59,060 nucleotides of DNA from a virus (lineage: Duplodnaviria; Caudoviricetes), in the IMG/VR virus record IMGVR_UViG_3300045996_002405, positions 1 to 59,060 of that record. One strand, 5' to 3'. Position 1 is the first letter of the stretch. Each line of letters opens with the position of its first letter. This document shows, one piece after another, positions 5,505 to 22,255 of the stretch. A model generated the notes under the pieces. That model was not told the DNA's origin, did no database searches, and saw only the letters and a program-made list of their open reading frames with translations. Made by a program: the position numbers and the translations under genes.

Positions 5505-5525
5505 TCGATCACCTAGGAGGAGCCC

Positions 5526-6080
5526 GTGCCCCACCCGTCCCCGAGCCCCGATGCACCGGGCACCTACGGCCCGTTCCGCCTGCAGCTGCGGATCGGCACA
5601 CCGCCGGACTACGAAGAGCAGTGGCTGCCCGGTGGCGGGCTACCCGGATCGATGGTGTCGGAAGTCCAGGTCGGGATCGCCGCAGCTCTGGACGCACAGC
5701 CCGCCGCCGCCGAGGTGACCGTGACGACGACCAACCCGGCCACCGGTGGATCGTCGGCGGTGACGTCGACGGTGCAGGTCGGCAGCGACCAGGCGTTCCG
5801 GGGCACACCGGACATGGCGTGGCCGCCACCGGCCGAGGGACCGGACGTGCAGCTCTGGACGGCGCAGGTCTGGTGCTACGCGGAGAACCCGCCGTCGGCC
5901 ACGCCGCTCGATTTCGCGGTCGTCGCGCGCGAGTGGGCGTCGCGGGTGGCGACCCTGGTCACCGAGTCCGGCGCTGAGTGCACGCTGCAGGTGGTCGGCG
6001 TGTGGACGTCGTCGGGGGACACCTGGTGGCCGCTGGACGCGGGCTATCCGGACAACGGGCACACCGTCGTCGTCGCGTAG
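5526..6080 (+). CDS. Hypothetical protein, last gene of the late operon
   Basis: RBS AGGAGGAG before GTG; followed by a hairpin. Confidence 0.7.
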   Translation: MPHPSPSPDAPGTYGPFRLQLRIGTPPDYEEQWLPGGGLPGSMVSEVQVGIAAALDAQPAAAEVTVTTTNPATGGSSAVTSTVQVGSDQAFRGTPDMAWPPPAEGPDVQLWTAQVWCYAENPPSATPLDFAVVAREWASRVATLVTESGAECTLQVVGVWTSSGDTWWPLDAGYPDNGHTVVVA

Positions 6081-6094
6081 CGGGTCGACACAGG

Positions 6095-6131
6095 ACGAGC
6101 CCCCGGTGAGCACTGCTCACCGGGGGCTCGT
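6095..6131. terminator. Bidirectional hairpin between convergent late and early arms
   Basis: ACGAGCCCCCGGTGAGCA-C-TGCTCACCGGGGGCTCGT inverted repeat. Confidence 0.8.
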
Positions 6132-6146
6132 GGTCTGTCCGGCCGG

Positions 6147-6599
6147 TCAGTCGATCTTGTCACCCGGTGTCCGCCGCGGCTTCCTGGCTGCGACTTTGCG
6201 GCGACGCGCCCGCTCCGCAGCGATCCCCTCCGCTCGACCGGCGGCGAGCCCGGCGCGGTACGTCCGGTCGAGCAGGGACGCGATCACGACGACCGTCACG
6301 CGTTCCCAGTCCGACAACCAGCGCAGGATGCGATCCTCCCGCGGGGTCGTCTCGACCCCGTGCAGGGCCTCGCGCATCAGCGCTTCCGCCCGCGCGTTGG
6401 TGCGCGTGCGCCAGGTGTCGACCGGTTCGTACCTGCCGTCGACGATGCGCTGTTCGTCCAGCGGGTCGCGCGGTCCGTAGTACGCACGATCAGCGTCGGT
6501 CCCGTCCGGCCGGTAGCGCAGCGGCTCCGCGTCGATCGGCCGGTGGATCGTCACGCCGTGCTCGTCGACCACCGGCGGCCGCGTCGGTCGCCTGCTCAC
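6147..6599 (-). CDS. Hypothetical protein
   Basis: GTGA coupling to the upstream gene; protein-like composition (VSRRPTRPPVVDEHG...). Confidence 0.65.
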   Translation of the reverse strand: MSRRPTRPPVVDEHGVTIHRPIDAEPLRYRPDGTDADRAYYGPRDPLDEQRIVDGRYEPVDTWRTRTNARAEALMREALHGVETTPREDRILRWLSDWERVTVVVIASLLDRTYRAGLAAGRAEGIAAERARRRKVAARKPRRTPGDKID

Positions 6600-7213
6600 T
6601 GCGAACCCGCCGGCGTCGACTGCGGAAGCCGGCGCGCAGCCCGGCGGGGAGCCGCCCACGTGTCGAAGCGGCTTCCCCCGACACCTTCGGGCAGCTCGCG
6701 CCACGTCTGCCAGTCCTCGACCTCCGCCAGGTACCGGGCGCACCCCGGAGCGTGCCCCCGCTCGGCGTCGTCGGGGTGCCGCTCGTACGGCCCGAAGTCC
6801 GTCACCCCGCGGCCACACGTGCTGCAGCGCCACCTCGTGTGGGCACGGTCGAAGGTGCCCTGCTGCATCGGGGACGTGACGAACTCGTAGGCCGCTTCGG
6901 CGAACGACCTGTCGTCCGGCTCGTGGTCCAGGAGGAGTTGTCCGATCTCGTGCCAGCCCCACCCGTCACCGCGAGCGCGGTCGACCACGCTGCCGAACTG
7001 CAGGCGCACCTCGTTGCGCAGCAGCCGCAGCGCGGAGATCGCCGCGGCGGTGTGCGGGACGCTGACGGTGGACGCTGCGCCCTCGAAGATCGGGCGCGTC
7101 TCGAAGCCTTCCTGGCCGTGCTCGCGGTGAACGATGCTCGCCACGCCCCGATCGATCGCCTGTCGCGCACGGAAGTCGGGATCGTCGTAGCTCGCGAAGT
7201 CGCTCGTACTCAT
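6596..7213 (-). CDS. Hypothetical protein (CxxC plus His/Cys, possible Zn-binding)
   Basis: RBS GAAGGAGAGG; 205 aa; WRCSTCG...H...HAPGC. Confidence 0.75.
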   Translation of the reverse strand: MSTSDFASYDDPDFRARQAIDRGVASIVHREHGQEGFETRPIFEGAASTVSVPHTAAAISALRLLRNEVRLQFGSVVDRARGDGWGWHEIGQLLLDHEPDDRSFAEAAYEFVTSPMQQGTFDRAHTRWRCSTCGRGVTDFGPYERHPDDAERGHAPGCARYLAEVEDWQTWRELPEGVGGSRFDTWAAPRRAARRLPQSTPAGSQ

Positions 7214-7247
7214 CGCTGCTGCCTCTCCTTCGGTGGTGGTGGGGTGC

Positions 7248-8408
7248 TCAAGGCGTGCGGTCGGCGAACTGCCGGCCGATGACGGTCGACGGGCTGCCCG
7301 CGTAGCTGCCGCGACGGCGGCCGTAGCGGACGGTCGTGGTGATGCTCGCGTGCCCGAACTGCCGCTGGATCTCGGGCAGCGGCACCCCAGCGCGGTCCGC
7401 GGCGTCGCGGAGGCTGTGGCGCAGCACGTGCGGGGTGACGGTGTGCGGCTCCTCGATGCCGGCGATCTGAGCCAGGTGGCCGATCAGGGCGTCGATGCCC
7501 TGGCGGCTCATCCTCGCGCCGGTGCGGGTGTAGAACGCCGGAGCGGAGCGGCCGCCGACGTCGCCGACGCGGGCCAGCGCTGCCCGGTCGCCGCGGCGGT
7601 CGGTCTCCCAGTACTCGACCAGCGCCGACCAGGCCCAGTCGTTGACCGCGACGGCGTGGACGTGGTCGCCCTTGACGCGCAGCCGCGCGATCCGTTGTCC
7701 GACGTCGATGCGGAAGTCGTCGCGGTTCAACGCGACCGCTTCGGACACGCGGCATCCGACGGTCGCCATGAACCGCGTAACCGCCCGCGCGCGGGGACGC
7801 AGGTCGAGCGGCGTGAACTGGTCGCCCGCGTCGACGAACGCGTTCAGCTCGTCGGCCGACAGCGACCGGGTCGGGGACACGGTGGGCACCTGCAGTTCGG
7901 CGCGACGCCGGTTGATCACGACCGGTGTGCAGTCGATCCGCTCGGCTACCGTCACGGCGTGCTCGTAGAACATCTCCACGGCGGTGAGGGCGTTCGCGCG
8001 CGACGCCGTCGACAGCGGTCGGCCGCGGTTCTTCCCCCGCGTCTGGGGCATCGTCGCCAGCAGCTCCAGCCAGTGCACGACCACCCGCCGACCGGCGTCG
8101 TAGGGGTGCAGGCCCAGACCGCGGCACAGCGTGAACCAAGACGCGCCGTTGAGCATGTCCGGCACCCGCTGGGACCGGTCGGGTCGGTCGAGCGCGACCG
8201 GATCCCACCAGGCGCCGAGAGCGTTCGCGTAGGTGAGGCGCGTCCGGTGCGACGTGTAACCCGACAGCCACTCGTCGGTGTCCGCGCGGAGCGCGACCCA
8301 GTCGGGGTCGCGCTCCGTCCACGTGCGCGCGTCGGCCGAGCCGGTCGCGGTCTGCTGCGGCGGGATGATCAGCTGCCCGGTCATCGCGGGCAGCACCAGC
8401 TTGGTCAC
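7248..8408 (-). CDS. Tyrosine recombinase (XerC/D-like integrase or resolvase)
   Basis: Catalytic set present: GCRVSEAVAL (R), RVKGD (K), PHVLRHS (HxxR), FGHASITTTVRY (H,Y); GTGA-coupled start at 8408. Confidence 0.92.
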   Translation of the reverse strand: MTKLVLPAMTGQLIIPPQQTATGSADARTWTERDPDWVALRADTDEWLSGYTSHRTRLTYANALGAWWDPVALDRPDRSQRVPDMLNGASWFTLCRGLGLHPYDAGRRVVVHWLELLATMPQTRGKNRGRPLSTASRANALTAVEMFYEHAVTVAERIDCTPVVINRRRAELQVPTVSPTRSLSADELNAFVDAGDQFTPLDLRPRARAVTRFMATVGCRVSEAVALNRDDFRIDVGQRIARLRVKGDHVHAVAVNDWAWSALVEYWETDRRGDRAALARVGDVGGRSAPAFYTRTGARMSRQGIDALIGHLAQIAGIEEPHTVTPHVLRHSLRDAADRAGVPLPEIQRQFGHASITTTVRYGRRRGSYAGSPSTVIGRQFADRTP

Positions 8409-9337
8409 GCCCGCACCTCCTTGGTGCCGTACTCGACCACGTGCCAGCCGGACTGCCGGTGACGCCGCACGGTGTCGCCGGAGAAGGCGTAGGCCTCCAC
8501 CGGCCACACCGCCGCCGTGCTGGTCTTGATCCGCACCGCGAAGCCGCGGCGGTCGACGTGCGGGGGAACCAGGTCGCGGGGCAGGTCGGCGACGGGCACG
8601 ACACTTCCGCCGGACCACTTGGCGATCAGCTGGGCATTGCTGTCGGTCAGCCGCACGCAGTCCCCGCCGAGCAGACCGATCGAGCGGCACTCTTCAAGGT
8701 CCCACGACACCCGGCACGAGTGGCGCCCGATGTCGGCTTCGTTGAGCTCGGGCGGTCCCTGGTCGATGCGGAAGCGCACACCGTGCAAGGCCAGCGCTTC
8801 GGCGAGCGTCCCGGCTTCGTGCTCCGTGATCCAGCGGCCATGTTGGGCCGCCAGGTGCAGCGCGCCCTTCACGTAGCGCAGCTCTTCGTGCAGGTCGATC
8901 GTCATGCGGGGCTCGGGGTCGTTGGCGGACGTCGGATGCTCCACCACCCGGTGATTCGCACCGATCAGACGCAGCGCGTGCACGTACTCCTGAACGTGCG
9001 CCTTGGTGGTGCGGACACGGACGCCGTCGGCGTCTATCAGCTGGCAGAAGTGGTGGGGGGGCGTCCGACCCCAGGGGTACGGCGGCAGCTCGTCGACCTC
9101 GTCCGCCGTCAGCAGCGCGGCGTGCGGGCCTCGAACGAGGTCGAGGCGCACGCTGCCGTCCCGGACCTCGACGGTGTCCAGCCGCCAGCCGCGCACCGCG
9201 AGCAGGTCACCGACCTCGTCGGCCAGCCATGCGGGAAACGGGTCGCCGACCGGGGCCGCGTCCGCGTGCTCCGCTTCCGGCGTGGGGAGCGCGGTGCGCC
9301 GTCCCAGATCGCACAGGAGCCTCTTCCAGACGCTCAC
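8405..9337 (-). CDS. Hypothetical protein
   Basis: 310-aa ORF in a coupled minus-strand operon. Confidence 0.7.
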   Translation of the reverse strand: MSVWKRLLCDLGRRTALPTPEAEHADAAPVGDPFPAWLADEVGDLLAVRGWRLDTVEVRDGSVRLDLVRGPHAALLTADEVDELPPYPWGRTPPHHFCQLIDADGVRVRTTKAHVQEYVHALRLIGANHRVVEHPTSANDPEPRMTIDLHEELRYVKGALHLAAQHGRWITEHEAGTLAEALALHGVRFRIDQGPPELNEADIGRHSCRVSWDLEECRSIGLLGGDCVRLTDSNAQLIAKWSGGSVVPVADLPRDLVPPHVDRRGFAVRIKTSTAAVWPVEAYAFSGDTVRRHRQSGWHVVEYGTKEVRA

Positions 9338-9379
9338 GCTGTCTTCTCCGTCTTCTCCAGTTCGTCGGGCAGAACTGCC

Positions 9380-9970
9380 TCACGCATCGTCCCCACCGCC
9401 CGGACACGCGCCGTGGTCGTCGAAGGGGCAGTGCTGATGGTGCTGGCGCAGCGCTCCCACGTACACCCTGCTCGCCTCTTCGTCGAGGCCGATCGTCCCG
9501 CGCAGGTATCGCCGATACGCGGCGTCCAGGTCGGCGGCCGCCGCCACCTGCAGAACGTTGCCCACGTGGCTCATCGCCCCGCACGGCGACCACTGCCACT
9601 CGGCGACGCCGGGGATCTCGCACCGCAGGAACCCCCGCAGCGTGCGACGGGCGATGCCCGGTGTCACCTGCAGCCGGCCGAGCGCCCGGACATCGATGTC
9701 CGGGCGCTCGGCGCGCAGGTCCTGCACCGTGACGAGCGCGTGTTCGCGGCCGACCGCTGGCACCAGCTGCGCGAGCAGCGCGGCGTCGTAGGCGGCGCGG
9801 GTCGCGTGCTCGGTCAGGGCGCGGGTGTAGGAGCCGACCTCGTCGGGGGTCAGGACGAGTGCGAAGTCGCGGCCGACCTGGATCGTCGTGCGGTAAACGC
9901 CGTCCGCCGTCGGGTCGGTGGTGACCCAGACCCGACGATCGTCCGGAAGATCCGGCGTGGTCGTGCTCAC
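9380..9970 (-). CDS. Hypothetical protein
   Basis: GTGA-coupled start (VSTTTPDLPDD...). Confidence 0.65.
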   Translation of the reverse strand: MSTTTPDLPDDRRVWVTTDPTADGVYRTTIQVGRDFALVLTPDEVGSYTRALTEHATRAAYDAALLAQLVPAVGREHALVTVQDLRAERPDIDVRALGRLQVTPGIARRTLRGFLRCEIPGVAEWQWSPCGAMSHVGNVLQVAAAADLDAAYRRYLRGTIGLDEEASRVYVGALRQHHQHCPFDDHGACPGGGDDA

Positions 9971-10293
9971 CGCGTCACCTCGGCAGGGCAGGGCAGCGGC
10001 GTGAGCTCGTCGCCCTGCAGATCGAAGTCGTCGACCTCCTGGTTCAGCGCGGCCGATACAGCGTCGGCGGGCAGCGCGACGAACCTGAACGAGTACGGCT
10101 CGCCCGGCATCCCGCACGTGACGTCGTACCCGGTGATCGGGTCGCCGCGGCCGTCCTGCACGGGGGAGACCTCGACGATGCGCCACTGATCGGTGTCGTC
10201 GATCGGCAACATCGAGTCCCGTATCCCCCCCGGACCGCCGAGCAGGATCACCCCCGCCGCGACCACGGCACCGGCTACCACGCGGCCGCTCAT
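9967..10293 (-). CDS. Hypothetical protein with N-terminal hydrophobic segment
   Basis: ATGA-coupled start MSGRVVAGAVVAAGVILLG. Confidence 0.6.
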   Translation of the reverse strand: MSGRVVAGAVVAAGVILLGGPGGIRDSMLPIDDTDQWRIVEVSPVQDGRGDPITGYDVTCGMPGEPYSFRFVALPADAVSAALNQEVDDFDLQGDELTPLPCPAEVTR

Positions 10294-10952
10294 CGCTGCA
10301 CCGCCGGCGCGGTGTCGGTGAGGCCCAGCGCGGAGTCGGACACCATCGACAGGCGCCGGACCGCTTCCGGCCACGTCAGCCCGCCCTCGATCGGCGGCGC
10401 GTCGGCGTCCGGCGAGATGGCGTAGGACCACGTGACCCGCAGCCGGTCGTCGGTGATCGTCGGCCACAGCTCACCGGCCCAGCGGCCGCGCGCCTCACCG
10501 GTGTACGGCGGCCGCGCCCCGCCCGCGGTGAGCAGCACGCACCCCCGGTCGTGATCCGGCCACGCCGAGCGGTACCTGCCGTCCGCCGTGGTCAGCACGG
10601 CACCGCCCCCGCCCATCACCACGGTGCAGCTCACCGACCCCTCGTGGTACTGCTGCTCGTCCTGCGGCACCAGCAGCCACGCCTCGGCATTGCGCCGCGC
10701 GGCCGTGATGTTCGATCCCAGTTCCGGGCCCAGCGGGTAGGCGACGTGCTGCGCCTCGGCCCAGTCGTCGTCGGTCAGGTGCGGGTGCTCCCGGAAGTGC
10801 CACCCGGGGTAGGTGCGGCCGAGCTCGCGCGCCCACCGGGCGCTGACCTTGACGAGCTGGTGCAGGCGGTCACCGTGGCGCACCGCGCCGTACCGGCCTT
10901 CGGCCGTGGGCGTCCACCGCAGAAGGCTGCCGAACCACCGCCTGCCGCTCAT
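10290..10952 (-). CDS. Hypothetical protein
   Basis: ATGA coupling at both ends; 220 aa. Confidence 0.7.
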   Translation of the reverse strand: MSGRRWFGSLLRWTPTAEGRYGAVRHGDRLHQLVKVSARWARELGRTYPGWHFREHPHLTDDDWAEAQHVAYPLGPELGSNITAARRNAEAWLLVPQDEQQYHEGSVSCTVVMGGGGAVLTTADGRYRSAWPDHDRGCVLLTAGGARPPYTGEARGRWAGELWPTITDDRLRVTWSYAISPDADAPPIEGGLTWPEAVRRLSMVSDSALGLTDTAPAVQR

Positions 10953-11215
10953 GAGCTGAACTCCTCGGTGGACGGAACCGCGGGGCGGGGGAGCGCGGCC
11001 GTGCGGACGCGGTCGAGCAGTGTCACGGCGGCGGCGTGAGCGTCCTCGTGCGACGGCGTGCCGCCGGTGGTCGTGAGGTACATGTGCGGGTTGGGGATCT
11101 CGCCTGCCAGGGGGGGCACGCTCGTCCAGGTCATGAACTCAGGTCCTTCCGATGGGGTGTGGTGGGCGGGCACGGACTCGTCGGCCTGCAACCAGGTTTC
11201 GATCAGCTTGATCAC
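10949..11215 (-). CDS. Hypothetical protein
   Basis: Coupled 88-aa ORF. Confidence 0.6.
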   Translation of the reverse strand: MIKLIETWLQADESVPAHHTPSEGPEFMTWTSVPPLAGEIPNPHMYLTTTGGTPSHEDAHAAAVTLLDRVRTAALPRPAVPSTEEFSS

Positions 11216-11658
11216 GACGTCGTTTCCGTGACGGGCTGCCCGGCCTGCGCGTCGGCAACCTGAGCTAGGGCGCGCATCAGGGTCGTGGACGCCGTCGCCG
11301 GTTGGGCCAGCACCACGCGAGCGACCTGCCGCAGCAACCGCTGATGCACATCGTGCGATGCCTTGCTGAGCTCGACGAGGTGAGAGGCCAGCTCGACCCG
11401 GTTGGCCAGCTGCTCACGGTCGGGCGCGACGGTGACGCGGCGGCGCAGGACGAGGTCTAGCGCATCGACGCGGCTGCCCGCCTGGTCGAGCGCGGGCAGG
11501 TGCAGACCGAGCACGCCGGCGTCGACGAGCGCGGCGAACAGGTCCAGGACGTCGGCGGCAGCGGCGATCAGCTCGTCGCTGTGCAGGGTCGAGTCGCGGA
11601 CGAGCTTGGCGGTCTTCTGGTACTGCACCGCGTCGGTGTGGCCTGGGTCGAACGGCAT
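11212..11658 (-). CDS. Hypothetical protein
   Basis: 148-aa helical ORF with an upstream CCCCACCACCAG motif. Confidence 0.7.
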   Translation of the reverse strand: MPFDPGHTDAVQYQKTAKLVRDSTLHSDELIAAAADVLDLFAALVDAGVLGLHLPALDQAGSRVDALDLVLRRRVTVAPDREQLANRVELASHLVELSKASHDVHQRLLRQVARVVLAQPATASTTLMRALAQVADAQAGQPVTETTS

Positions 11659-11761
11659 GGGAGGAGTCCCTGTCTGGTGGTGGGGTGTGCAGTGGTGATC
11701 AGTGCTGATCAGTCATCAGCCGCGGCGAGCAGCGCGAGGTGCTCGCGCTGCTCGCCGTCCA

Positions 11762-12577
11762 TCAGGAGACCTGCTCGGAGCTGGTCTGGCCGTACTCGGC
11801 ACGCAGGTCGGCGATGAGCTGCGCGCGGTCCGGCGTCAGCGGGTGCACGTAGATCACGCGGCGGCCCTTCTCCAGTGCGTCGATGTTGACGCTCCACACC
11901 AGTCCGGCGACCTCGTCGACGTGGATCTCCCGACCGGTCCGGTCGTCCGGGCCGAGCGGGACGGCGACAGCGCCGTCAGCGACGGCGTCGGCGCTGTTGC
12001 TGTCCGGCCGGTACGTCGAGTCAGAGCTGAACTCCTGGTGGACGCGCGTGCGGAGCTGTTCGCGCCGCTTGCGGGTGTCGAACTCGTTGCGACGCCGGTC
12101 GTTCTCGGCGTCGACGTCGTCCTGCGTCGCAGCGCGGACACGCGCGATGTAGAGGTAGCCGCGGTCTTCGCCGACGCCGTAGGTCAGCCCGTCCTCGTCG
12201 TAGTACTCGCGGATGACCTCGACGGGCACGACGAGCCCGGAACGGTCGCCGTTGAGTTCGTCGCGCTGGCGGAGGGTCGTGAAGGTCGGGTTGCTGGCAG
12301 GCTGCCAGCGTGCGCTGACGACGCGGCCGACGATGAGCGGCGAGATCCGCGGGTTGCGGAGGTCGCCGGATCCTCGGGTCACGATCACCTCGTCGTCCCC
12401 GGTGCGTGTGCGGAGGGCGTGAACGGGGTCGGTGGTCGAGGACTTGCCGGCCGACGTGGCGGAGCCCCGGATCTCGGTGACCGACGACACGGTGCAGGGG
12501 GTTCCGTCGGCGTAGCGACCGACCGCGACGTCGACGTCCGGGTCCGGGTTCTGCGGGGGTATTGGCATAACACGCAT
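11762..12577 (-). CDS. Hypothetical protein (start at 12577 or 12568)
   Basis: Protein-like from MRVMPIPPQNPD onward; upstream region is AT-rich and regulatory. Confidence 0.65.
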   Translation of the reverse strand: MRVMPIPPQNPDPDVDVAVGRYADGTPCTVSSVTEIRGSATSAGKSSTTDPVHALRTRTGDDEVIVTRGSGDLRNPRISPLIVGRVVSARWQPASNPTFTTLRQRDELNGDRSGLVVPVEVIREYYDEDGLTYGVGEDRGYLYIARVRAATQDDVDAENDRRRNEFDTRKRREQLRTRVHQEFSSDSTYRPDSNSADAVADGAVAVPLGPDDRTGREIHVDEVAGLVWSVNIDALEKGRRVIYVHPLTPDRAQLIADLRAEYGQTSSEQVS

Positions 12578-12587
12578 TATGCCAATA
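12560..12587. other. dif-like tyrosine-recombinase site (11-6-11)
   Basis: TATTGGCATAA-CACGCA-TTATGCCAATA: perfect 11-bp arms and 6-bp spacer; inner GCATAA-N6-TTATG matches canonical dif. Confidence 0.65.
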
Positions 12588-12905
12588 CCCCCTAGTTTTT
12601 CTACAAGCTCTAGGGTTCGTCCGTTTCGGTGATGTCCGGACACTTCCCGCATTTCTGCTGGCAATCGGCAGATCAGCTCGACCAACCCTGCGACCAGTTC
12701 ACGAACTGCTCGCACGTCCTGCTGATCACCAACCATGCGGTCTGGACGTGAAACGGCCCCGCCGGTCGGCTGCGGGGGGTGCAGTCGACCGGCGGGGCCG
12801 TTGGGGTGCCGCTCGGCTCCCGGGGGGAGGAACCGCTGCGCTCGCACGGTAGAGCTGTCGGCGGCCGCGCCGGATACACGTCCGACCGGACGTCACCCGA
12901 TCGAG

Positions 12906-13307
12906 TTACGCGAACAGCGCGAACTGCCCGCCCTCGTCGCGCGCGGGCTGCTCGGTGAGGACCCGGTGCCGGTTCGGGTGGCACGTGCACGGACACCGGT
13001 AGCGGCACACCCGGTCGGCGAGCCACACCCGCACCGTCGATCCGCGAGCGTGCCGCGGCTTCGTGTCGCCCGGGTAACTCACGACGACGGTCCCGGACCG
13101 ATCGCACAGGTACGTCTCGCACGTGGGCATCAGCGCGCCGGTGCACCGGCCGTGCTGCGTGCCCGAGCAGTGACCGGTCGGGCCGGCCTGGCACGCGCAC
13201 GTCGTCGCGGCCTGCGGCACGTCGTGGTGCACCTGGCGCTGTCGAGGCGTCCAGGCGTTCTCGCGAATCCAGGCGGCGCGCTCGTCGTCGAACGGCGGGC
13301 TCACCAC
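12906..13307 (-). CDS. Cys-rich protein (DUF6248-like) with C-terminal QFALF
   Basis: AAWIRENAW...CACQ.G....C...H..C...VWLADRVCRYRCPC pattern. Confidence 0.65.
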   Translation of the reverse strand: MVSPPFDDERAAWIRENAWTPRQRQVHHDVPQAATTCACQAGPTGHCSGTQHGRCTGALMPTCETYLCDRSGTVVVSYPGDTKPRHARGSTVRVWLADRVCRYRCPCTCHPNRHRVLTEQPARDEGGQFALFA

Positions 13308-13564
13308 GGGCCGACGCTGAACCGCTCGCGCTCGTCACCGTCGCGGCCGATGACCATCTCCGCCTTGTCGACCTCGACGGTGACGGTCTCGCCGAGCACG
13401 ACGACGGCGTTGCGGTCGACCAGCTCGACGATCACGACGTCGGACCCGGGGTCGTCGGGCTCGCGTGCGGTGACCCACTCGGACACGGCGTTGATCCAGC
13501 CGATCACGGCGTCGCGGTTGAGCAGGGTCAAGGTGATCTGGTTGTCGGTCTGCGGTTCGGACAC
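13301..13564 (-). CDS. Hypothetical protein
   Basis: RBS AGGAG before GTG (VSEPQTDNQITL...). Confidence 0.6.
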   Translation of the reverse strand: MSEPQTDNQITLTLLNRDAVIGWINAVSEWVTAREPDDPGSDVVIVELVDRNAVVVLGETVTVEVDKAEMVIGRDGDERERFSVGPW

Positions 13565-13572
13565 GGGATCTC

Positions 13573-13944
13573 CTAGGGGATGAGGTCGGTCAGGGCGATC
13601 TGGTCGGGGTCGAAGTCGGCTGGCCGCGGCTCGCGGCCGGTGGTGCAGTCCGGGCACCAGAAGCGGCGCCGGTGCTCTTCCACGTGCCAGCCGGACGAGC
13701 GCGCGAGCGCGGCCGCGGCGGACCAGGACGGGCAGTGCGCGGCGACGAGGTCGACCAGGTGTCCGCACGCGACGCAGGCGGCGCTCACGCACCGCTCGTT
13801 CGCACGGGACACCTGGCGGCCCGTCGCCGCGGCGGCGGCACGGGTCGAGTGGTGCTGGCCCGCTGCGATCCAGCACCGCTCGCCGACGGCGTACGGGTAG
13901 TCGGTCAGCGCCGGTACCGCCTGTCGATCCAGCGGGTGATCCAC
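13573..13944 (-). CDS. Putative zinc-finger protein
   Basis: CVACG ... WCPDC motifs. Confidence 0.55.
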   Translation of the reverse strand: MDHPLDRQAVPALTDYPYAVGERCWIAAGQHHSTRAAAAATGRQVSRANERCVSAACVACGHLVDLVAAHCPSWSAAAALARSSGWHVEEHRRRFWCPDCTTGREPRPADFDPDQIALTDLIP

Positions 13945-14204
13945 TGCGCGGGGTCGCCGTGCCGGTGGCTGATCGCGTCGAGCACCGTTGGATCTCCCTC
14001 CTGGAACCAGGCCGACAGGTCGTCGAGCACCGAGACGGGGTCCTGCTCACGGCGGGTCAGCTCGGACAGCTGGACGGCCAACAGCTCGAAGCTGGGGGAG
14101 GCGATCACGGGATCGGCCAGGACGCGTGGCAGGGAGTCGTCCACAAAGCGGACGGCGTTCTGCACCTGCTGCTCTCGGAGGCGCTGCTGCTCATGGGTGG
14201 GCAC
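13905..14204 (-). CDS. Hypothetical protein
   Basis: RBS GAAGGAG before GTG (VPTHEQQRLREQ...). Confidence 0.6.
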   Translation of the reverse strand: MPTHEQQRLREQQVQNAVRFVDDSLPRVLADPVIASPSFELLAVQLSELTRREQDPVSVLDDLSAWFQEGDPTVLDAISHRHGDPAQWITRWIDRRYRR

Positions 14205-14501
14205 GGGGCTCCTTCGCGCTGGTGAGGAGATGATGAGCGCGAGCCCCGACCAGCGGCGGGAGGTCTGCCGGTCGGGGCTCGCTGGTTGGTCACCGCGCGT
14301 TGAGGGAGTCGCGCGGTGACCTGGCTGGGGGCGCGGAGAGCGACGGCGGTCGGGGTCACAGGACCGCCGTCGCCCTCTCGCTGGCAGGGCCGGTCGCGCG
14401 CCGGGGGGCTGGGGGGGGAGCCCGCCCGGTCGGGGGCCGCGCTGACCGGCCGTGGTCGGACCGGTCGGGTCGGGGGAAGGAGACACCCGACCCGACCGGG
14501 G

Positions 14502-14933
14502 TCAGCTGGCCCGCAGCTGGTGCCAACCGGTCGGGTGCCGGTCGCCGTCGCACAGGCCGATGGTGTCGCCCTGCACACCGCAGGTGAGGCAGGCGAAGTC
14601 GACGTCGGGGTCGGTGCAGCCGTCGAGGGTCGCGACGCGGTGCAGGGCGCCGGTGAAGTGCTCGACGTCCTCGAACGTGGCGGTCACGCCGTCGGGGAGC
14701 GTGGACGTGCTCCACAGCAGGCCGCAGAGGGTCAGCACGTCGTCGAACTGCCGCGCCTGGATCGGGGCGTCGGTGAAGCGGGTCCGCGTCCAGCCCGCAC
14801 CGGCGAACCAGATCAGGTCGTCGTTGCCGGGGACCAGACGGACGTCCGTGACCAGCCGCAGGACGTCGCCGATCACGACCTGTGAGCCGCGCCGGACGTC
14901 CGCGGTGGTGACGATCCGCATCGTGTCGCTCAT
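14502..14933 (-). CDS. Hypothetical protein, first gene downstream of the 14.97-kb promoter
   Basis: 143 aa; directly follows a TTGACC-17-TAGGGT promoter. Confidence 0.7.
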   Translation of the reverse strand: MSDTMRIVTTADVRRGSQVVIGDVLRLVTDVRLVPGNDDLIWFAGAGWTRTRFTDAPIQARQFDDVLTLCGLLWSTSTLPDGVTATFEDVEHFTGALHRVATLDGCTDPDVDFACLTCGVQGDTIGLCDGDRHPTGWHQLRAS

Positions 14934-14944
14934 CCCAACCCCTT

Positions 14945-15056
14945 AACCCTAGACTTTCTACCAACACAACTAACCCTAGGGTTTACAGGGGAACGGGTCA
15001 AGCCCCTTCGTGTGATCGGCCAGACTTCCCCTGGTATCCCCACTAACGGTAGGGTT
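14945..15056. promoter_or_regulatory. Divergent promoter region with three AACCCTAGGGTT-type operators
   Basis: Operators at 14945-14956 (partial), 14972-14983 (perfect) and 15045-15056 (AACGGTAGGGTT). Leftward promoter TTGACC(15001-14996)-17 bp-TAGGGT; rightward TAGGGT 7 nt before ATG 15063. Confidence 0.8.
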
Positions 15057-15062
15057 AGGCGT

Positions 15063-15374
15063 ATGACTGATGCGCCGAACGATGAGTCGCTGGTGTTCCG
15101 GTTCCAGCCGCCGGCTGACCGCGAACAGACCCCTGACCTGCGCAGGGCGAGCCAGCTCAACGCCGACGAGCTGCGGCGCGTCCTCGGCGGCCGGCTCGAA
15201 CGCGCGACGCATCGCAACGAGCCGACGCAAATCTGGAAGCACGGCGAGGAAGTGGCGGTGCTGGTCGGGACCGAGTGGTTCTGGGAGGCGAACGAGCTGA
15301 TGCGGCGTGCCGGACGACCTCACGCGCACACGGAGTTCGACCCCCTGCCCCGACGGGAGTCCCCGCGCACGTAG
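15063..15374 (+). CDS. Orphan Phd/YefM-fold DNA-binding protein (candidate repressor)
   Basis: LNADELRRVLGGRLERATHRNEPTQIWKHGEEVAVLVGTEWF matches the Phd/YefM pattern; only clear plus-strand gene in the 15-kb minus-strand arm; probably leaderless. Confidence 0.65.
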   Translation: MTDAPNDESLVFRFQPPADREQTPDLRRASQLNADELRRVLGGRLERATHRNEPTQIWKHGEEVAVLVGTEWFWEANELMRRAGRPHAHTEFDPLPRRESPRT

Positions 15375-15388
15375 CGCGACCTCGGCCA

Positions 15389-15497
15389 CCGGCGCACGAC
15401 GAAGCCCCCGGACCACCACGGTCCGGGGGCTTCGTCGTGCGCCGGGCGCTCGTCGACGACGCACGAGCCCCCGGCACCACGTGGTGCCGGGGGCTCG
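15389..15497. terminator. Two tandem hairpins between convergent genes
   Basis: Inverted repeats at 15389-15445 and 15464-15497. Confidence 0.75.
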
Positions 15498-15510
15498 AGA
15501 TCCGGGCCGC

Positions 15511-15738
15511 TCAGTCGAACAGGTCGCGCAACTGCTGCTGCTCGTCGACGTGGTCCAGCACCAGACCGACGCGCTCGCGCAGCTGGGGTGCGCGCGGCGG
15601 GGTGTAGCAGCCTTCCACACCGGCGACGTGCGACTGCATCACCGGGCGCCACCCGGCGTCGTAGGAGTCGCGATACCACCGCGCGAGCATCTCGACGTCG
15701 TCGGCCGACAGCGTGCGCAGCGCACGTGAGCGGTTCAC
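15511..15738 (-). CDS. Small hypothetical protein ending QLRDLFD
   Basis: GTGA-coupled start VNRSRALRTL. Confidence 0.6.
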   Translation of the reverse strand: MNRSRALRTLSADDVEMLARWYRDSYDAGWRPVMQSHVAGVEGCYTPPRAPQLRERVGLVLDHVDEQQQLRDLFD

Positions 15739-16190
15739 GGCTGCACCTTCCTGATCTGCGCGGCCGCCATGTTGGCCGCGCGGGCGCGTGCGTCCCGGCT
15801 GGCGAACTCGGTGCTCGTCAGGTGCGGGGCGACCTGGATGCGCTGCACCAGGACGTCGGCGTGCCCTCCCTCGGGGGAGAGCATCACCCAGCGCAGGTCG
15901 ATCACCGGGGGCTGCAGCGGCATGTCGGTCTCCGCCGAGGCCCACCGGTCGAGGGCGAACAGCGCGGCGTCGGACTGCTCGTCGAACTCGCGGCCGAGGT
16001 CGTAGACGTTGGGCACGGCGTAGTAGCGGCGGATCAGCTTCGAGCCGACAGCGATGAGACCGAGCACGGTTTCCCCCGTGGACATGGTGCGGGCGCGGTC
16101 CGCGCCCGCTGGACTTTGAGCGGTGGACTGCCGAGCGGGTGCACAGCACGCGCAGTGCGCGCCGTGCACCCTGGCGACGGGCTGGGTCAT
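15735..16190 (-). CDS. Hypothetical protein
   Basis: ATGA-coupled start MTQPVARVHG. Confidence 0.6.
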   Translation of the reverse strand: MTQPVARVHGAHCACCAPARQSTAQSPAGADRARTMSTGETVLGLIAVGSKLIRRYYAVPNVYDLGREFDEQSDAALFALDRWASAETDMPLQPPVIDLRWVMLSPEGGHADVLVQRIQVAPHLTSTEFASRDARARAANMAAAQIRKVQP

Positions 16191-16513
16191 CGGGTCAGCA
16201 GCGCCGTGGTGGCGCACTCGACGGCCGCGGGGATGGACAGGTCGGCCAGCGTCACGCCGGACTCGATCTCGCTGGTGAGGGTCCAGGTCAGGACGTCGTC
16301 GCGGCCGTCGACCGGCTGGCTGACCAGGCACCAGCGGTGCTCGTTGCGCTCGGTGGTCAGGACGAGGGCGGAGCCGGGGACGTCGTGCCGGGCGACCCAC
16401 GTCGCGCCGAGCACGGTCACCGTGTAGTCCACCTGCGCGCCGGTGTGGTCGACGGCGTCGGGGCCGGTGCGCACGACTGCGGGGTTCGGGCGGGGGACGG
16501 TCAGCTGGGACAT
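16187..16513 (-). CDS. Hypothetical protein
   Basis: RBS GAAGGA; 108 aa. Confidence 0.65.
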   Translation of the reverse strand: MSQLTVPRPNPAVVRTGPDAVDHTGAQVDYTVTVLGATWVARHDVPGSALVLTTERNEHRWCLVSQPVDGRDDVLTWTLTSEIESGVTLADLSIPAAVECATTALLTR

Positions 16514-16563
16514 GTGGCGTTCCTTCGAGGTCGTGTTCTTCGGGGTCAGGGCGGTCGGGGTGG

Positions 16564-16824
16564 TCAGCGGCCGAACTTCGGGGCGGCGGTCAGGGTGCGG
16601 CGGGCGCGGTCCTGGCGACCGGCGCTCACGGCGTCCTCGACGCGGTAGAGCGTCAGCAGTGCGGTGTCGTGGTCGAGGGCCGCGCGGGCGAGCGCGATCA
16701 GCGCGGCCCGGTCAGCGCCGTCGAACTGCTCGACGAGGTCGGGGACCTGAACGCAGGTGGCCCGGATCCACGCGATGATCTTCCGTTCGGTCGCGCGGAC
16801 GGGGTGCGGGTAGTTGGTCTTCAC
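16564..16824 (-). CDS. Hypothetical protein
   Basis: RBS AGGAGG; downstream of an operator-promoter. Confidence 0.7.
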   Translation of the reverse strand: MKTNYPHPVRATERKIIAWIRATCVQVPDLVEQFDGADRAALIALARAALDHDTALLTLYRVEDAVSAGRQDRARRTLTAAPKFGR

Positions 16825-16855
16825 CGGTCGCCCTCCTAACTCTGGTATCGCTAGT

Positions 16856-16885
16856 AACCCTAGGGCTAGATGGGGTGGAAATCAA
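16856..16885 (-). promoter_or_regulatory. Promoter TTGATT-17-TAGGGT with overlapping operator AACCCTAGGGCT
   Basis: Operator 16856-16867; -35 at 16885-16880. Confidence 0.75.
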
Positions 16886-16917
16886 CCGGGTTGGTGAAGT
16901 TCTTGCAGGCCAGAGAG

Positions 16918-17388
16918 CTAGGCGAGCAGCGCGAGACTCTTCGCGGCTTGCTTCTGGTAGCCGATTCCCGGCGCCGCTTCGTAGACGTCGTGGGTTACGA
17001 CCCATGACGTCTCGACGCGCTCGGCCGCGTCCGCCAGGCGCACGCGGTACGCGGCGGGCAGGAAGCACCAGACCTCGACCAGCTCGCGGCCGCCGGTGAC
17101 GTCGGCGAGCTGGTCGGCGAGCTGGTCGATGTCGATCGAGCACGCGTCGCGCATCGTGACGTCGTAGGGGTCGACGACCTGGTCGAGGTCGAGCAGGCCG
17201 TACCGGGCCGACAGGATCATGACGCGGGTCGGACCGCTGGTCGCGGCCGCTTCGGCGACGACGTCGCGGAGGACCTGGCGGAACGCGCTCCCGGTGTAGA
17301 GGTCGCGCGCGGGGGCGGCCGCGGCGAGCTTGGCACCGCCGCAGGGGACGACGAAGACGTTCAGCCGCTCGTCCTGGTCCTGGTGCAC
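16918..17388 (-). CDS. DUF6884-like protein
   Basis: VVPCGGAK...ARDLYTG..F...ILSARYGLL....V.PYDVTM...GIGYQ signature. Confidence 0.7.
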   Translation of the reverse strand: MHQDQDERLNVFVVPCGGAKLAAAAPARDLYTGSAFRQVLRDVVAEAAATSGPTRVMILSARYGLLDLDQVVDPYDVTMRDACSIDIDQLADQLADVTGGRELVEVWCFLPAAYRVRLADAAERVETSWVVTHDVYEAAPGIGYQKQAAKSLALLA

Positions 17389-17406
17389 GGTGCCCCCCTG
17401 GTGTGA

Positions 17407-17439
17407 TGCCCTACCAACACCACAAACCCTAGGGTTTGT
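17407..17439 (-). promoter_or_regulatory. Operator/promoter with 18-bp palindrome ACAAACCCTAGGGTTTGT
   Basis: Palindrome 17422-17439; 28 bp shared with 21431-21458. Confidence 0.8.
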
Positions 17440-17508
17440 ACGGCTATGTCGGTAGACGCCGAACGGGGCGTACCGGCCGGTACGCCCCGTTCGACCAGGG
17501 GGAGAGGG

Positions 17509-17856
17509 TCAGGCGGACAGCTGGAAAAGCACGGCCTGGTCGCCCGGTTCCGGTGTCGCCGGCGTGCTCGCGCGGGCGACGACGTGGTTGCGGCACGCGG
17601 GCCGGCGGCAGGAGATCTCGTCGGACGTCTCGTGCAGCCGGCCGAAGTCCCAGCCGGAGACCCCGACCCGGCACGCGGGCACCATGACGTCGACGCCGAG
17701 GAAGGTCGCCGGGATCACGGCGTGCACGCGGCCGCGGGGACCGACGCGCCCGTTGCGGCCGCCGCGGAACCGCCGCACGAACTCTTCGCTCACCCCGTGC
17801 AGGAACGTGCGTGCGCTCACCAGGGTCAGCGGGTCCGTGTGCGCTGTAGCGCTCAT
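17509..17856 (-). CDS. Hypothetical protein ending QAVLFQLSA
   Basis: MSATAHTDPL start; Cys residues near the C-terminus. Confidence 0.6.
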   Translation of the reverse strand: MSATAHTDPLTLVSARTFLHGVSEEFVRRFRGGRNGRVGPRGRVHAVIPATFLGVDVMVPACRVGVSGWDFGRLHETSDEISCRRPACRNHVVARASTPATPEPGDQAVLFQLSA

Positions 17857-17975
17857 GGCGTCAGTGTGGCAGGTCGCCCAGCTGCTCACTTGCGTCGTTC
17901 GGGTCAATGTCCGGACACAAGTGGTCCCCCTCACACGGACGCGTGAGGGGGACCACCGTGGTGCTGCTCGGGGAG

Positions 17976-18731
17976 CTACTCCGGTGATGGTGCGCCTTGG
18001 TTGAGCGCGGGTGCGCCCTGGTCCAGCAGGTCGTGCCACTGGGCCAGCTCGTGCTGCCAACCGGCCCCGTCTCCGGGGTCGTCGCCGCCGAGACCGAACG
18101 TCACGCCCAGCGCCATGACGAGCGTGGTGGCGATCTGCTGGTGGTGTGCGGCCAGCTGCAGATGACGGTCACCGCGACGAGCCGCGGCGCGGCGTTCGCG
18201 GTCGGACCGCTGCGCGCCGGCGGGCAGCACGACCTCGGCTTCGGCGTAGAGATTCGCCGCGCACGCCGCATGCATCTCGGCGGTCCGCACGTGGTCGGCG
18301 CCGCTGCGTTGACCGGCATCGAGCCGCCAGGTGCACAGTTTCCGCAGCCGTGCGTACTTCGTGCGGGTGCTGTGGCCGTCCCACAGCGCGGCGGGGTGTC
18401 CGGGGTCGACGGTGGGCACGTGGCCGAACACGGTCGCGGCCTGCTCGGCGGGGATGTGCCAGCTCATCTGTCCGACGAGGTTGTTCGTCACGTAGAGCAC
18501 GACGAACCCCGGCCAGCGCGGGTCGTTGTCGCAGAGCACCGCGTGCGAGTCGGGGTCGACGGTCAGCCACTCCAGAACGCGGGAGCGCTCTTCGTACACG
18601 GCGTCGAGCGCGGGCCGAACGGTCTCCCGGTGCAGGATGGTCGCCCACTCACGGGCGACGTCCGCGTACGGCCGGTCGGGGATGCCCTCGGCCAGCAGCT
18701 CGGCCAGTCGGGCGCTCAGGGTGTCGATCAC
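17976..18731 (-). CDS. WDGH-motif phage protein
   Basis: GFVVLYV...GQMSWHIP...WDGHST motif; GTGA coupling. Confidence 0.65.
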   Translation of the reverse strand: MIDTLSARLAELLAEGIPDRPYADVAREWATILHRETVRPALDAVYEERSRVLEWLTVDPDSHAVLCDNDPRWPGFVVLYVTNNLVGQMSWHIPAEQAATVFGHVPTVDPGHPAALWDGHSTRTKYARLRKLCTWRLDAGQRSGADHVRTAEMHAACAANLYAEAEVVLPAGAQRSDRERRAAARRGDRHLQLAAHHQQIATTLVMALGVTFGLGGDDPGDGAGWQHELAQWHDLLDQGAPALNQGAPSPE

Positions 18732-19096
18732 GTGTTCGTCGCCTTCCTGCTCTCGTCGGCCAGCCGTGCGGCTTCGCGCCGGAAGTCGGCGGCCATCGCG
18801 TCGCCGGACGCGATCAGCGCGCCGAGGTACTGCAGAACCTCGGTCGCGTCGACGTTCGTCGGTATCCGGCGGGTGGTGCTCCAGTCCGCGGCGCTCTGCG
18901 GGGTCGAGGGCAGCGGCCCGAGGTCGTCGATCTGATCGCGCAGCTCGATCAGACCGGTCGCGAACGTCGTCCACCAGGTCGCGGCGCGGGCGGCGTCTTC
19001 CTCTCCGCGCACGAGCGCGTGACGGACGGCGTGCTCGGTGCGCACATCGGGGTCGGGGTGCCAGCTGGGTCGGTCGTGCTCGGTGGTGGTGCTCAT
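18728..19096 (-). CDS. Hypothetical protein
   Basis: RBS AGGAGGA; 122 aa. Confidence 0.7.
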   Translation of the reverse strand: MSTTTEHDRPSWHPDPDVRTEHAVRHALVRGEEDAARAATWWTTFATGLIELRDQIDDLGPLPSTPQSAADWSTTRRIPTNVDATEVLQYLGALIASGDAMAADFRREAARLADESRKATNT

Positions 19097-19117
19097 GTCG
19101 GGGTCATCCTCCTGAGA

Positions 19118-19175
19118 CGGACATTGCTCCCATAACCCTAGTAAAACTAGGTTTAGGGGAGCAATGTCCGGACAC
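19118..19175. promoter_or_regulatory. Inverted repeat enclosing two operator half-sites, plus a TGTCCGGACA palindrome
   Basis: CGGACATTGCTCCC...AACCCTAG...CTAGGTTT...GGGAGCAATGTCCG. Confidence 0.6.
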
Positions 19176-19373
19176 TCGGCGTTCGGGTGAATCAGGCCGA
19201 TTCGCGCAGTACCGGCGCGGTGTGGACGGTGCCCAGGAGCTCGTCGTCAGTTCGCGGAGCGCGTCCAGCCAGTCGTCGGCCTGGTCCACGGTCGGCAGCA
19301 GCAATGGGCTATACGCCGGACGGGTGACCCCGACGCTCTCGGCGTCGACGACCACCCGTCCGACCAGCGCAGA

Positions 19374-19961
19374 TCAGGGCGTCAGGATCCCACCGCAGGT
19401 CCGGCACAGCACCCGGTCGAGCGGGTCTCCGGCCGGCGTCACGTGTCCGCACGCACTGCACACCCACTCCCCGCGCCAGTCGTCCCACAGCCCGTAGTCG
19501 GTGGGCAGGAAGCGCGTCCAGAGGTGTTCGGCCGTGACCGGGTCGACGACGATTCGGCGCACCGCGTCCCAGCGGCGCCGGGCGACGGGGTCGGTGATGT
19601 CGCTCATCCACTCCCGCACGCGCGAGTAGTGCGGTTCCGCCAGCTCGCCGTCTTCCATCGCGCGCGTGGCCCGCATCGTGCAGTCGGCTTCGTCCAGCGC
19701 CGCCGCCGTGACGAGCCGACCCGCGGCTACCTGCAGCCGCTCGGTCACGGCCCGGTCGCCGCGACGCTCGGCGCTCATCCGCGCGGTCACCAGCGCGAGC
19801 GCGAGCACGCTGTTCGCCGACAGCACGCCGGAGCCCTCGGCGGCCAGGTGCTCGGCGTAGCGCACGGCCTGGTCCAGCTGCTCGACTGCGACGGCCGCAG
19901 TCAGCATGCGGACCGCGTCCAGGGTGTAGCTGTCGAGTTCGTAGTGGTCGTGTCCGTACAT
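19374..19961 (-). CDS. Hypothetical protein with C-terminal Zn ribbon
   Basis: MYGHDHYELD start; CSACG...CRTCGG. Confidence 0.65.
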   Translation of the reverse strand: MYGHDHYELDSYTLDAVRMLTAAVAVEQLDQAVRYAEHLAAEGSGVLSANSVLALALVTARMSAERRGDRAVTERLQVAAGRLVTAAALDEADCTMRATRAMEDGELAEPHYSRVREWMSDITDPVARRRWDAVRRIVVDPVTAEHLWTRFLPTDYGLWDDWRGEWVCSACGHVTPAGDPLDRVLCRTCGGILTP

Positions 19962-20032
19962 GGCAGTCCCGTCCTGGTGGTGGGGGAGTGCGCGCCCGCA
20001 CCGGCGATCGGTGCGGGCGCGCGGTGGTGGGG

Positions 20033-21415: not shown

Positions 21416-21430
21416 TGTCACTCCCTCGTT

Positions 21431-21478
21431 TGCCCTACCAACACCACAAACCCTAGGGCTACTAGGGGAGATGTGCAA
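21431..21478 (-). promoter_or_regulatory. Promoter TTGCAC-17-TAGGGT with overlapping operator AACCCTAGGGCT
   Basis: Operator 21449-21460; -35 at 21478-21473. Confidence 0.8.
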
Positions 21479-22113: not shown

Positions 22114-22255
22114 CCCCCAACGACGAGCGTTACAGCAGGTAACGCAAGGTCCCCCGTACGAGTGATGTTCTCGCTAAATCGCGTGGAATTTTCGCGTCCC
22201 GGTGCGAGGGTCGACGAGCAAGTACCGCCGTCGACGTGACCCCGTGACCCCAAAC

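Follow-up and report, generated by a model that had tools for sequence, protein, structure and literature searches.

The locus

The tailed soil phage entered in IMG/VR as record IMGVR_UViG_3300045996_002405 (Duplodnaviria; Caudoviricetes) carries a long, perfect inverted repeat across the beginning of an orphan gene, and this palindrome is the subject of the present analysis. The window, by which we mean the whole record of 59,060 bases, has direct terminal repeats (127 bases are common to both ends), is circularly permuted, and has a G+C content of 71%. The palindrome lies at 12555-12592 and reads GGGGGTATTGGCATAA-CACGCA-TTATGCCAATACCCCC: two 16-nt arms (12555-12570 and 12577-12592) enclose a non-palindromic 6-nt spacer (12571-12576), and no strand is assigned to the whole.

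The orphan gene (11762-12568, minus strand) encodes 268 amino acids and has its first five codons inside the palindrome. The G+C content at third codon positions (GC3) of its frame is 0.90-0.91, and the start codon was placed at the ATG of 12566-12568 (minus strand) from GC3 together with the public gene call of 268 amino acids; a second in-frame ATG (12575-12577, minus strand) also falls within the palindrome. A comparison of the protein with 5.8 billion others returned only a match to itself, and it has no Pfam or PHROG family, no PDB relative and no usable Atlas match. The 328-bp gap that separates the orphan gene from its upstream neighbour, a DUF6248 gene at 12906-13307, contains the palindrome. 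Downstream of that neighbour lies a G+C-rich hairpin (12752-12802, minus strand; 22-nt arms, 95% complementary, -46.8 kcal/mol, z -7.5), likely the terminator of the upstream unit, and a perfect 16-3-16 G+C-rich hairpin (11723-11757, minus strand; -35.5 kcal/mol) directly follows the stop codon of the orphan gene, which, being flanked by these two hairpins, therefore forms a unit of its own.

Symmetry and uniqueness of the palindrome

The palindrome is real and non-random: it can be read directly from the sequence, and in 60 first-order Markov simulations (spacers of 0-10 nt) the longest perfect arm was 13 nt, none reaching 16. A first-pass annotation of the same DNA had described a perfectly symmetric 11-6-11 site here, and this observation is confirmed, the inner 11-6-11 being as it was written and the arms extending to 16 nt. 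Perfect palindromes are common in this phage: perfect inverted repeats whose arms measure 11 nt or more number 24 (distinct ones), nine of these having arms of 16 nt or more, and the one at 12555-12592 is the odd one out by composition and position. The other eight long-arm repeats are G+C-rich (18-27% A+T), terminator-like hairpins, whereas this one is the A+T-richest of the nine, at 47%. As a hairpin it has a predicted energy of -29.7 kcal/mol (z -7.1) on the plus strand and -30.4 kcal/mol (z -6.3) on the minus strand.

The half-site is also single. Searching the window with the 11-mer arm at up to two mismatches gave two matches, which are the two arms themselves, and arm cores of 7-10 nt have no further occurrence there. 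In IMG/VR, no locus carries the full arms with any spacer and none the exact central 18-mer. A search with 8-nt arms and any spacer gave 35 loci, all on contigs of 30-46% GC and none with CACGCA as the spacer; these were judged unrelated.

Several established classes of site were considered and rejected. Protelomerase targets need a palindrome that is continuous through its centre, and a telRL-type target was set aside because the central CACGCA is not self-complementary. An origin of replication was rejected at this position, iteron-like repeats lying at 22976-23095 instead, as was a parS site, the palindrome being single-copy and the ParB_N-like gene of the phage sitting in a 7-deazaguanine cluster. 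There is no resemblance to LexA, IdeR, Zur, NrdR, CRP or AdpA boxes, as judged by their consensus sequences only.

A promoter match inside the palindrome

On the minus strand the 5' arm ends in TGGCATAA, and the spacer base next to it, a T, completes an extended -10 element, TGgCATAAT (12576-12584, minus strand), with its CATAAT hexamer at 12581-12576. Sixteen nt upstream is a -35-like hexamer, TAGAAA (12598-12603, minus strand), recognised by consensus match only. The combination TAGAAA-N16-CATAAT agrees with the consensus at 9 of 12 positions, has TG ahead of the -10, and has an expectation of 0.0 in shuffles of the 600-bp region. It was the sole such site found by a promoter scan of 6000-25900 (shuffles expect 0.4 per 20 kb), and when the same criteria were re-implemented for the whole genome on both strands, TAGAAA-N16-TGgCATAAT was again the sole sigma-70-consensus promoter match. 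The T-rich tail TAGTTTTTCT (12593-12602) that follows the hairpin on the plus strand is, on the minus strand, the A-rich spacer of this promoter.

The remark in the first-pass annotation that the site overlaps a CATAAT -10 box and the start of the gene holds, as the ATGs at 12577 and 12568 are both inside it. The -10 hexamer ends 7 nt before the ATG at 12568, a predicted leaderless geometry that agrees with a sigma-70/leaderless layout (6-8 nt), and leaderless mRNAs are common in actinobacteria. Promoter-like match and spacing stand against a real coding frame whose first codons are constrained at the nucleotide level: codons 2 and 3 are CCA and ATA, which over 65 predicted genes account for 35 of 1062 proline codons (3.3%) and 6 of 527 isoleucine codons (1.1%), and from this rarity it follows that the right arm is held by symmetry and not by coding.

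The other promoters of the phage are of a different and recurrent type, TTGnnn-N17/18-TAGGGT, so the promoter in the palindrome would be separately controlled. Five copies were found (14973-15001, 16857-16885, 19135-19164 and 21450-21478 on the minus strand, and 24178-24206 on the plus strand), each followed at 35-45 nt by a start codon that has a Shine-Dalgarno sequence, and the family is also represented at 17426-17435 and 41911-41920. Genome-wide, five of six TTG-N-TAnnnT matches end in TAGGGT, and the -10 box of the family lies within a palindromic AACCCTAGGGTT motif. A degenerate remnant of the family, CCCTAGAG, is found upstream of the orphan gene at 12608-12616, without the final T of the -10 and without a -35. 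At 12633-12642 is TGTCCGGACA (no strand), a second recurrent intergenic palindrome with 12 matches at up to one mismatch, compared with 2.8 expected; its exact intergenic copies are at 12633, 17908 and 19165.

Other palindromes were noted in the window. One of the TAGGGT promoters is surrounded by a 53-bp near-perfect palindrome (19118-19170; 25-nt arms, 92% complementary), as a result of which each strand bears -35 and -10 boxes that mirror, and face, those of the other. An A+T-rich perfect 11-2-11 palindrome, GATCTTCTCAC-GA-GTGAGAAGATC (26936-26959), ends 20 nt before the gene at 26980-28461 and is a candidate for another operator. A 36-bp perfect palindrome with no spacer (9677-9712), situated within the coding gene 9380-9970 (minus strand), holds CCGGACATCGATGTCCGG, which resembles TGTCCGGACA.

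A probable switch gating the orphan gene

The positive evidence is strongest for a link of the palindrome with the genome's sole consensus promoter and with the beginning of the orphan gene. The palindrome is most likely a regulatory switch; it also looks like a recombinase target, a less probable role considered below. Our leading explanation, which we hold tentatively, is that it serves as a symmetric protein-binding operator, or as a hairpin, that gates the promoter of a leaderless orphan gene. The minus-strand 5' arm would supply the extended -10 box TGgCATAAT, and transcription by RNA polymerase would begin some 7-8 nt further downstream, on or beside the first base (A) of the 12568 start codon, which is in the 3' arm; with a start there, the proposed mRNA would begin with its own start codon. 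A dimeric or tetrameric symmetric DNA-binding protein would recognise both identical arms and, once bound, mask the -10 box together with the start site and the initial codons, turning the promoter off. In a transcript reading through from upstream, a hairpin of about -30 kcal/mol would bury both ATGs, so that only transcripts from the internal promoter could be translated. What we infer from the arrangement is where transcription starts, that a binding protein exists and which it is, and that it represses.

This explanation is favoured because the promoter is the sole sigma-70-consensus match on either strand of 59 kb, because its -10 ends 7 nt before the ATG of a 268-codon frame with a GC3 of 0.91, and because the orphan gene forms its own unit between hairpins. 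It is favoured further because codons 2 and 3 are rare and the arm is kept by symmetry, because the promoter differs from the TAGGGT family, because other promoter regions of the phage carry palindromes of their own (19118-19170 and 26936-26959), and because the half-site occurs singly in the genome, as would be expected of a dedicated operator. The likeness to operator palindromes of leaderless actinobacterial and phage genes lies in a symmetric, single-copy site that covers the -10, the transcription start and the first codons of a terminator-flanked gene.

Several points weigh against an operator. Family searches found no recognisable DNA-binding domain in the neighbouring proteins and gave no candidate repressor; the likeness to known operators does not extend to a cognate regulator. 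Operators are usually shorter than this perfect symmetry of 38 bp and seldom so exact. By its very composition, every CATAA-N6-TTATG core holds a -10-like hexamer and an ATG 7-8 nt downstream, and for that reason the promoter geometry could be a by-product of a recombinase site. An operator also leaves as coincidence the agreement of the central 24 nt with a transposon recombination core at 23 of 24 positions. Finally, the proposal is drawn from the sequence of a single genome.

A possible recombination site

A less probable explanation, though one with evidence of its own, is that the phage's own tyrosine recombinase, arm-less and Xer-like, uses the palindrome as its core site, either as the phage attachment site (attP) or as a single loxP-like site that resolves genome dimers. 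In that case two recombinase monomers would bind to the identical arms, and strand exchange would take place where the arms meet the asymmetric 6-bp spacer. The site has the anatomy of such a core, with identical arms, a 6-bp asymmetric spacer, and CATAA and TTATG beside it. The phage encodes one tyrosine recombinase, an integrase of 386 amino acids (7248-8408, minus strand; Pfam Phage_integrase, 6e-22) whose full catalytic set (R206, K246, H327, R330, H353 and Y362) is invariant in a 21-sequence alignment (A1), which places it in the tyrosine recombinase superfamily.

In its AlphaFold model the integrase has a simple, Xer-like fold, with helices only before residue 230 and, ahead of the catalytic domain, nothing beta-rich of the arm-binding type. 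The mean predicted local distance difference test score (pLDDT) is 69 and falls below 50 at residues 1-31 and 69-88; the low confidence of this N-terminus, which only one close homologue covers, counts against the argument drawn from the model. The best fold matches in PDB are XerH and XerA, both single-recombinase enzymes, and XerD, followed by IntI, Cre (rank 18), Tn1549 Int, lambda Int and the Brujita integrase (rank 30). On the model, the integrase may therefore work like a simple Xer-like recombinase. Enzymes of this kind need no arm-type repeats, and none flank the site. Some phages are driven by simple recombinases, and PMC8138268 counts simple enzymes in 27 phages and arm-binding enzymes in 410, with Brujita as an example of the simple type.

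The first-pass annotation had called the enzyme Xer-like, and this stands for the fold, nearest to XerH, XerA and XerD, and fails for family membership. Against the NCBIfam equivalogs the integrase scores 93.7 bits for XerD (cut-off 329.6), 79.6 for XerC (335.15), 84.5 for XerA (220) and 42.9 for XerS (267); with scores so far below all cut-offs, it is not a member of the Xer family.

The position of the site speaks against a recombination core. From the palindrome to the start of the integrase gene (8408) is 4,147 bp, in agreement with the roughly 4 kb given by the first-pass annotation, and seven predicted genes intervene. The sites of single-recombinase systems (loxP/cre, difSL/xerS, difH/xerH) usually adjoin the recombinase gene, and loxP and the Brujita attP lie next to it or inside a gene that adjoins it. 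The phage resembles Cre/loxP of phage P1 and the arm-less Brujita integrase (PMC8138268) in what would be a simple tyrosine recombinase of a temperate phage acting on a short symmetric site without arm-type sites; it differs from them in that its site is 4.1 kb from int. Arms of 16 nt with G5/C5 ends, moreover, exceed the needs of such enzymes.

The only close relative of the integrase is a 55% identical homologue on a 6.2-kb metagenome contig (L003; integrase at 1741-2883), which is syntenic with 4857-8321 of the window, through two genes after int into the tail-end genes. This contig has only 1.7 kb upstream of int and contains no CATAA-N6-TTATG, and the stretch that would match 12555-12592 lies beyond it. 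The gene upstream of int in the contig differs from that in the window, so the 310-amino-acid protein whose gene overlaps int (8405-9337), and which has no family match, is not a conserved partner. A search with the integrase homologue P0003 gave no match among species genomes and, among metagenome contigs, this one contig.

A core shared with RIT-like transposon ends

A scan of one genome for each of 185,579 species found the central 18-mer at 15 loci, where chance would give 8-17 as estimated from base composition. Eight of the 15 (L039, L042, L043, L045 and L048-L051), in five genomes that span four phyla, represent one structure: an element's end, followed by overlapping tyrosine recombinase genes; L054 (210-317 and 318-3506) is listed with them. 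The genomes belong to Paracoccus, Rhizobium, Thiobacillus, Scalindua and one actinomycetote (G002, flagged unpublished). The match extends beyond the 18-mer: over TAT[T/C]GGCATAA-CACGCA-TTATGCC the core of the phage and that of these recombinase-in-trio (RIT)-like elements are identical at 23 of 24 positions, the whole spacer included. The Rhizobium copy has three consecutive overlapping frames, all Phage_integrase matches, and no matching inverted repeat was found at its other end. Genes for an ArdC-type metallopeptidase or an IS256-type transposase are the places of insertion of these elements, and their conserved end consists of four or five TTATGCC half-sites and one 6-bp-spaced core. RITs are described as having three recombinases as well as inverted repeats of 34 bp at their termini, with transposition never reproduced (PMC10214605), and genes for recombinases in trios are described (PMC3414803); the literature searched contained no mention of the 16-mer CATAACACGCATTATG.

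The RIT-like terminal core resembles the phage site in its inverted half-sites at 6-bp spacing and its Xer-like inner arms. It lies no more than about 40 nt from the end of the element, beside three adjacent, overlapping recombinase genes. The phage, by contrast, has one Phage_integrase match among its 65 predicted proteins, and its enzyme is not specifically related to those of the trios (29% identity over 150 amino acids and 24% over 128). A single pair of half-sites is present in the phage as against the four or five of the transposon end, and arm symmetry reaches 16 nt in the phage and 8 nt in the transposon.

The number of 18-mer matches is about that expected by chance, which leaves the extension of the core and its context as what is unusual; that these are pure chance is unlikely, and the match to RIT-like ends is the one result that no ordinary explanation accounts for. 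Its weight is limited because the phage enzyme is only 24-29% identical to the trio enzymes and because none of the 15 loci has phage-like flanks; nor was a lysogen junction seen. On this lead we raised the probability that the palindrome is a recombination site to the level at which it is given above, still doubtful. A crossover in the spacer would separate the -10 box from the start codon, and expression of the orphan gene would then depend on the integration state. That the palindrome is indeed the core site of the arm-less integrase and doubles as a promoter, with strand exchange rewiring the orphan gene by integration state, we consider marginally less probable again.

Transcript-level alternatives and the dif question

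Two explanations at the level of the transcript are both improbable. In the first, the hairpin is an intrinsic terminator that stops plus-strand (antisense) transcription, or else insulates the upstream unit and the orphan gene from each other in both directions. Read on the plus strand, the 16-bp stem with its loop of 6, its G+C-rich base and the directly following TAGTTTTTCT has the form of a terminator, at -29.7 kcal/mol, and eight of the nine long perfect inverted repeats in the genome are terminator-like. There is, however, no plus-strand gene upstream for it to terminate, neither the TAGGGT nor the consensus promoter type occurs on the plus strand of 11500-13000, and the plus-strand frames there have an antisense-type composition. 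The upstream minus-strand unit already has a strong hairpin of its own at 12752-12802, and the T-run is equally well explained as the A-rich promoter spacer of the minus strand.

In the second, to which we give as little credence, an mRNA arriving from upstream forms a hairpin that sequesters a GGGGG Shine-Dalgarno-like run and the ATGs, throttling translation with no DNA-binding protein. The G5 run, placed 10 nt ahead of the 12577 ATG, is paired in the stem with C5, the two ATGs themselves fall in or beside the stem, and perfect pairing is what selection for a hairpin predicts. Such a device lacks a good promoter further upstream, the remnant CCCTAGAG at 12608-12616 having neither the final T of its -10 nor a -35, and the consensus -10 is inside the stem, so that a transcript from there would miss the 5' arm.

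Two further proposals involve sites borrowed from other elements. Because the phage site has 23 of 24 nt, including the whole spacer, in common with the RIT-like terminal core, the end of such a transposon might be the chromosomal attachment site of the phage, a parasitism like that of IMEX elements on dif; this variant of a recombination site is decidedly improbable. Least probable of all, to the point of being nearly negligible, is that the palindrome mimics the dif site of the host and is used by host XerC/XerD with FtsK, as by IMEX elements.

The first-pass annotation had described a dif-like site, and the likeness is partial: an 11-6-11 layout with CATAA and TTATG by the spacer is present, and identity to three dif sites is 14-17 of 28 positions. 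The reference sites, those of E. coli, of B. subtilis and the predicted one of Frankia alni, were taken from PMC3025954. Against them the XerD side agrees at 7-8 of 11 positions, counting in favour of mimicry for E. coli and Frankia together with the inner CATAA/TTATG, and the XerC side, the left arm, agrees at only 5-7 of 11, the spacer at 1-3 of 6. The arms of the phage site are symmetric at 11 of 11 positions as against 4-6 of 11 in the three references, so the distinct arms that mark a dif site are absent. In the 185,579-species scan, the core appeared only in the transposon family and in scattered single matches.

A comparison of the spacer with candidate host dif sites, as the first-pass annotation had proposed, did not bear out integration at dif. 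The pattern ATAA-N6-TTATGCCAA occurs at 27 places in 401 sampled Actinomycetota genomes (reversed control, 7) and ATAA-N6-TTATGTCAA at 21 places in 151 (control, 9), with the spacer CACGCA at 0 of 27 and 0 of 21; as the host is not identified and genomes were sampled, this means not found, not absent. Several of the ATAA-N6-TTATGTCAA places are near the middle of single-contig chromosomes, with spacers such as TCCACG and GCCACA, as we would expect of dif.

Bacterial dif and its single-recombinase variants (XerH/difH, XerS/difSL and XerA) share with the phage the 11-6-11 layout, CATAA/TTATG at the borders and the nearest fold, and the identical arms of the phage site would suit a single enzyme. 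They differ in that the phage enzyme scores 43-94 bits against cut-offs of 220-335, in that the site has the limited dif identity given above, lies 4.1 kb from the recombinase gene and sits on top of a promoter, and in that there is no FtsK partner. The protein called TraB/FtsK in the first-pass annotation is a P-loop ATPase of 783 amino acids (30209-32560, plus strand) with a Walker A motif at residue 307. It has weak matches to a PHROG FtsK/SpoIIIE-like family (E 2.7e-5) and to a TraB model (31.4 bits, cut-off 800), and no match to Pfam FtsK_SpoIIIE or FtsK_gamma at E<=1. The phage-borne FtsK-Xer-dif trio proposed earlier consequently fails, and the claim is removed under any explanation of the palindrome. 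Overall the recombinase/dif interpretation has partial support: the site does have the anatomy of a recombinase core and the integrase does have an Xer-like fold, and membership of Xer, dif and FtsK fails where testable.

Genome context and searches for relatives

The gene content of the window (a terminase, a Mu-F-like head protein, a GH25 lysin, a 7-deazaguanine synthesis cluster and the one tyrosine recombinase) marks a temperate-type tailed phage of a high-GC actinobacterium. The minus strand carries the genes from 21415 down to 6147, and the plus strand carries the remainder. Among GenBank phages the closest terminase, 49% identical, is that of a Saccharomonospora phage, the closest integrases are about 32% identical, and no nucleotide similarity to 11000-14500 was found. 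Comparison of the terminase with 401 and 301 sampled Actinomycetota genomes gave best identities of 43% and 39%, and no close prophage was found. IMG/VR scans with the orphan protein, the integrase, the DUF6248 neighbour and the integrase alignment gave no usable relative, apart from one weak 21-residue match (L002).

One soil sequencing run contained 26% of the sampled words, and no RNA run was listed as containing them. Reads from three soil runs assembled into contigs of 190-330 nt at about 1-3x depth, too sparse for junctions, and 12407-13095 was covered by no piece among those listed from these runs. The joints and loose ends in the soil reads are side matches of 20-24 nt, typical of other organisms. 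ARAGORN found no tRNA in the genome, and Rfam at E<=5 gave only sub-threshold chance matches, with no tRNA fragment to mark attP and no other mark of attP genome-wide.

Further features of the phage genome

The 7-deazaguanine (queuosine/archaeosine precursor) cluster occupies 32969-37154 and comprises genes for a ParB_N-like protein, an unassigned protein of 313 amino acids, QueC, a 6-pyruvoyl-tetrahydropterin synthase-like protein, a radical SAM protein and GTP cyclohydrolase I; its presence suggests that the phage DNA is modified. Between two genes for replication-initiator-like helix-turn-helix (HTH) proteins (21808-22113 is HTH_36) lie four copies of GGGTGACTAGTAGTC in both orientations (22976-23095); these repeats are iteron-like, and replication probably originates in this region. 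Around 22496-22960 there seems to be a coding stretch that is not annotated, with approximate coordinates that, as drawn, contain stop codons.

A further recurrent sequence, CCCCACCACC, has nine copies, compared with 0.26 expected by chance, always on the strand of their own gene block: 7235-7244, 11676-11685, 19976-19985, 20023-20032 and 21590-21599 on the minus strand, and 25571-25580, 28592-28601, 30184-30193 and 37196-37205 on the plus strand. Each of the five copies checked is just 5' of a purine-rich stretch and a start codon; one copy stands ahead of the gene that follows the orphan gene, and one ahead of the gene that follows int. The sequence could act as a signal for translation or for processing, or could represent another class of promoter.

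Implications

If the palindrome is an operator, it would be an ordinary though unusually clean switch of a leaderless phage gene, in which the site holds its own -10 and start codon, and its main use would be that of a regulatory part, compact and portable, in high-GC actinobacteria. If it is instead a recombination site, the phage would be a rare tailed phage driven by a simple Xer-like recombinase, phage sites would be linked to the end sequences of RIT transposons, and recombination and promoter function would be written in the same 38 bases.

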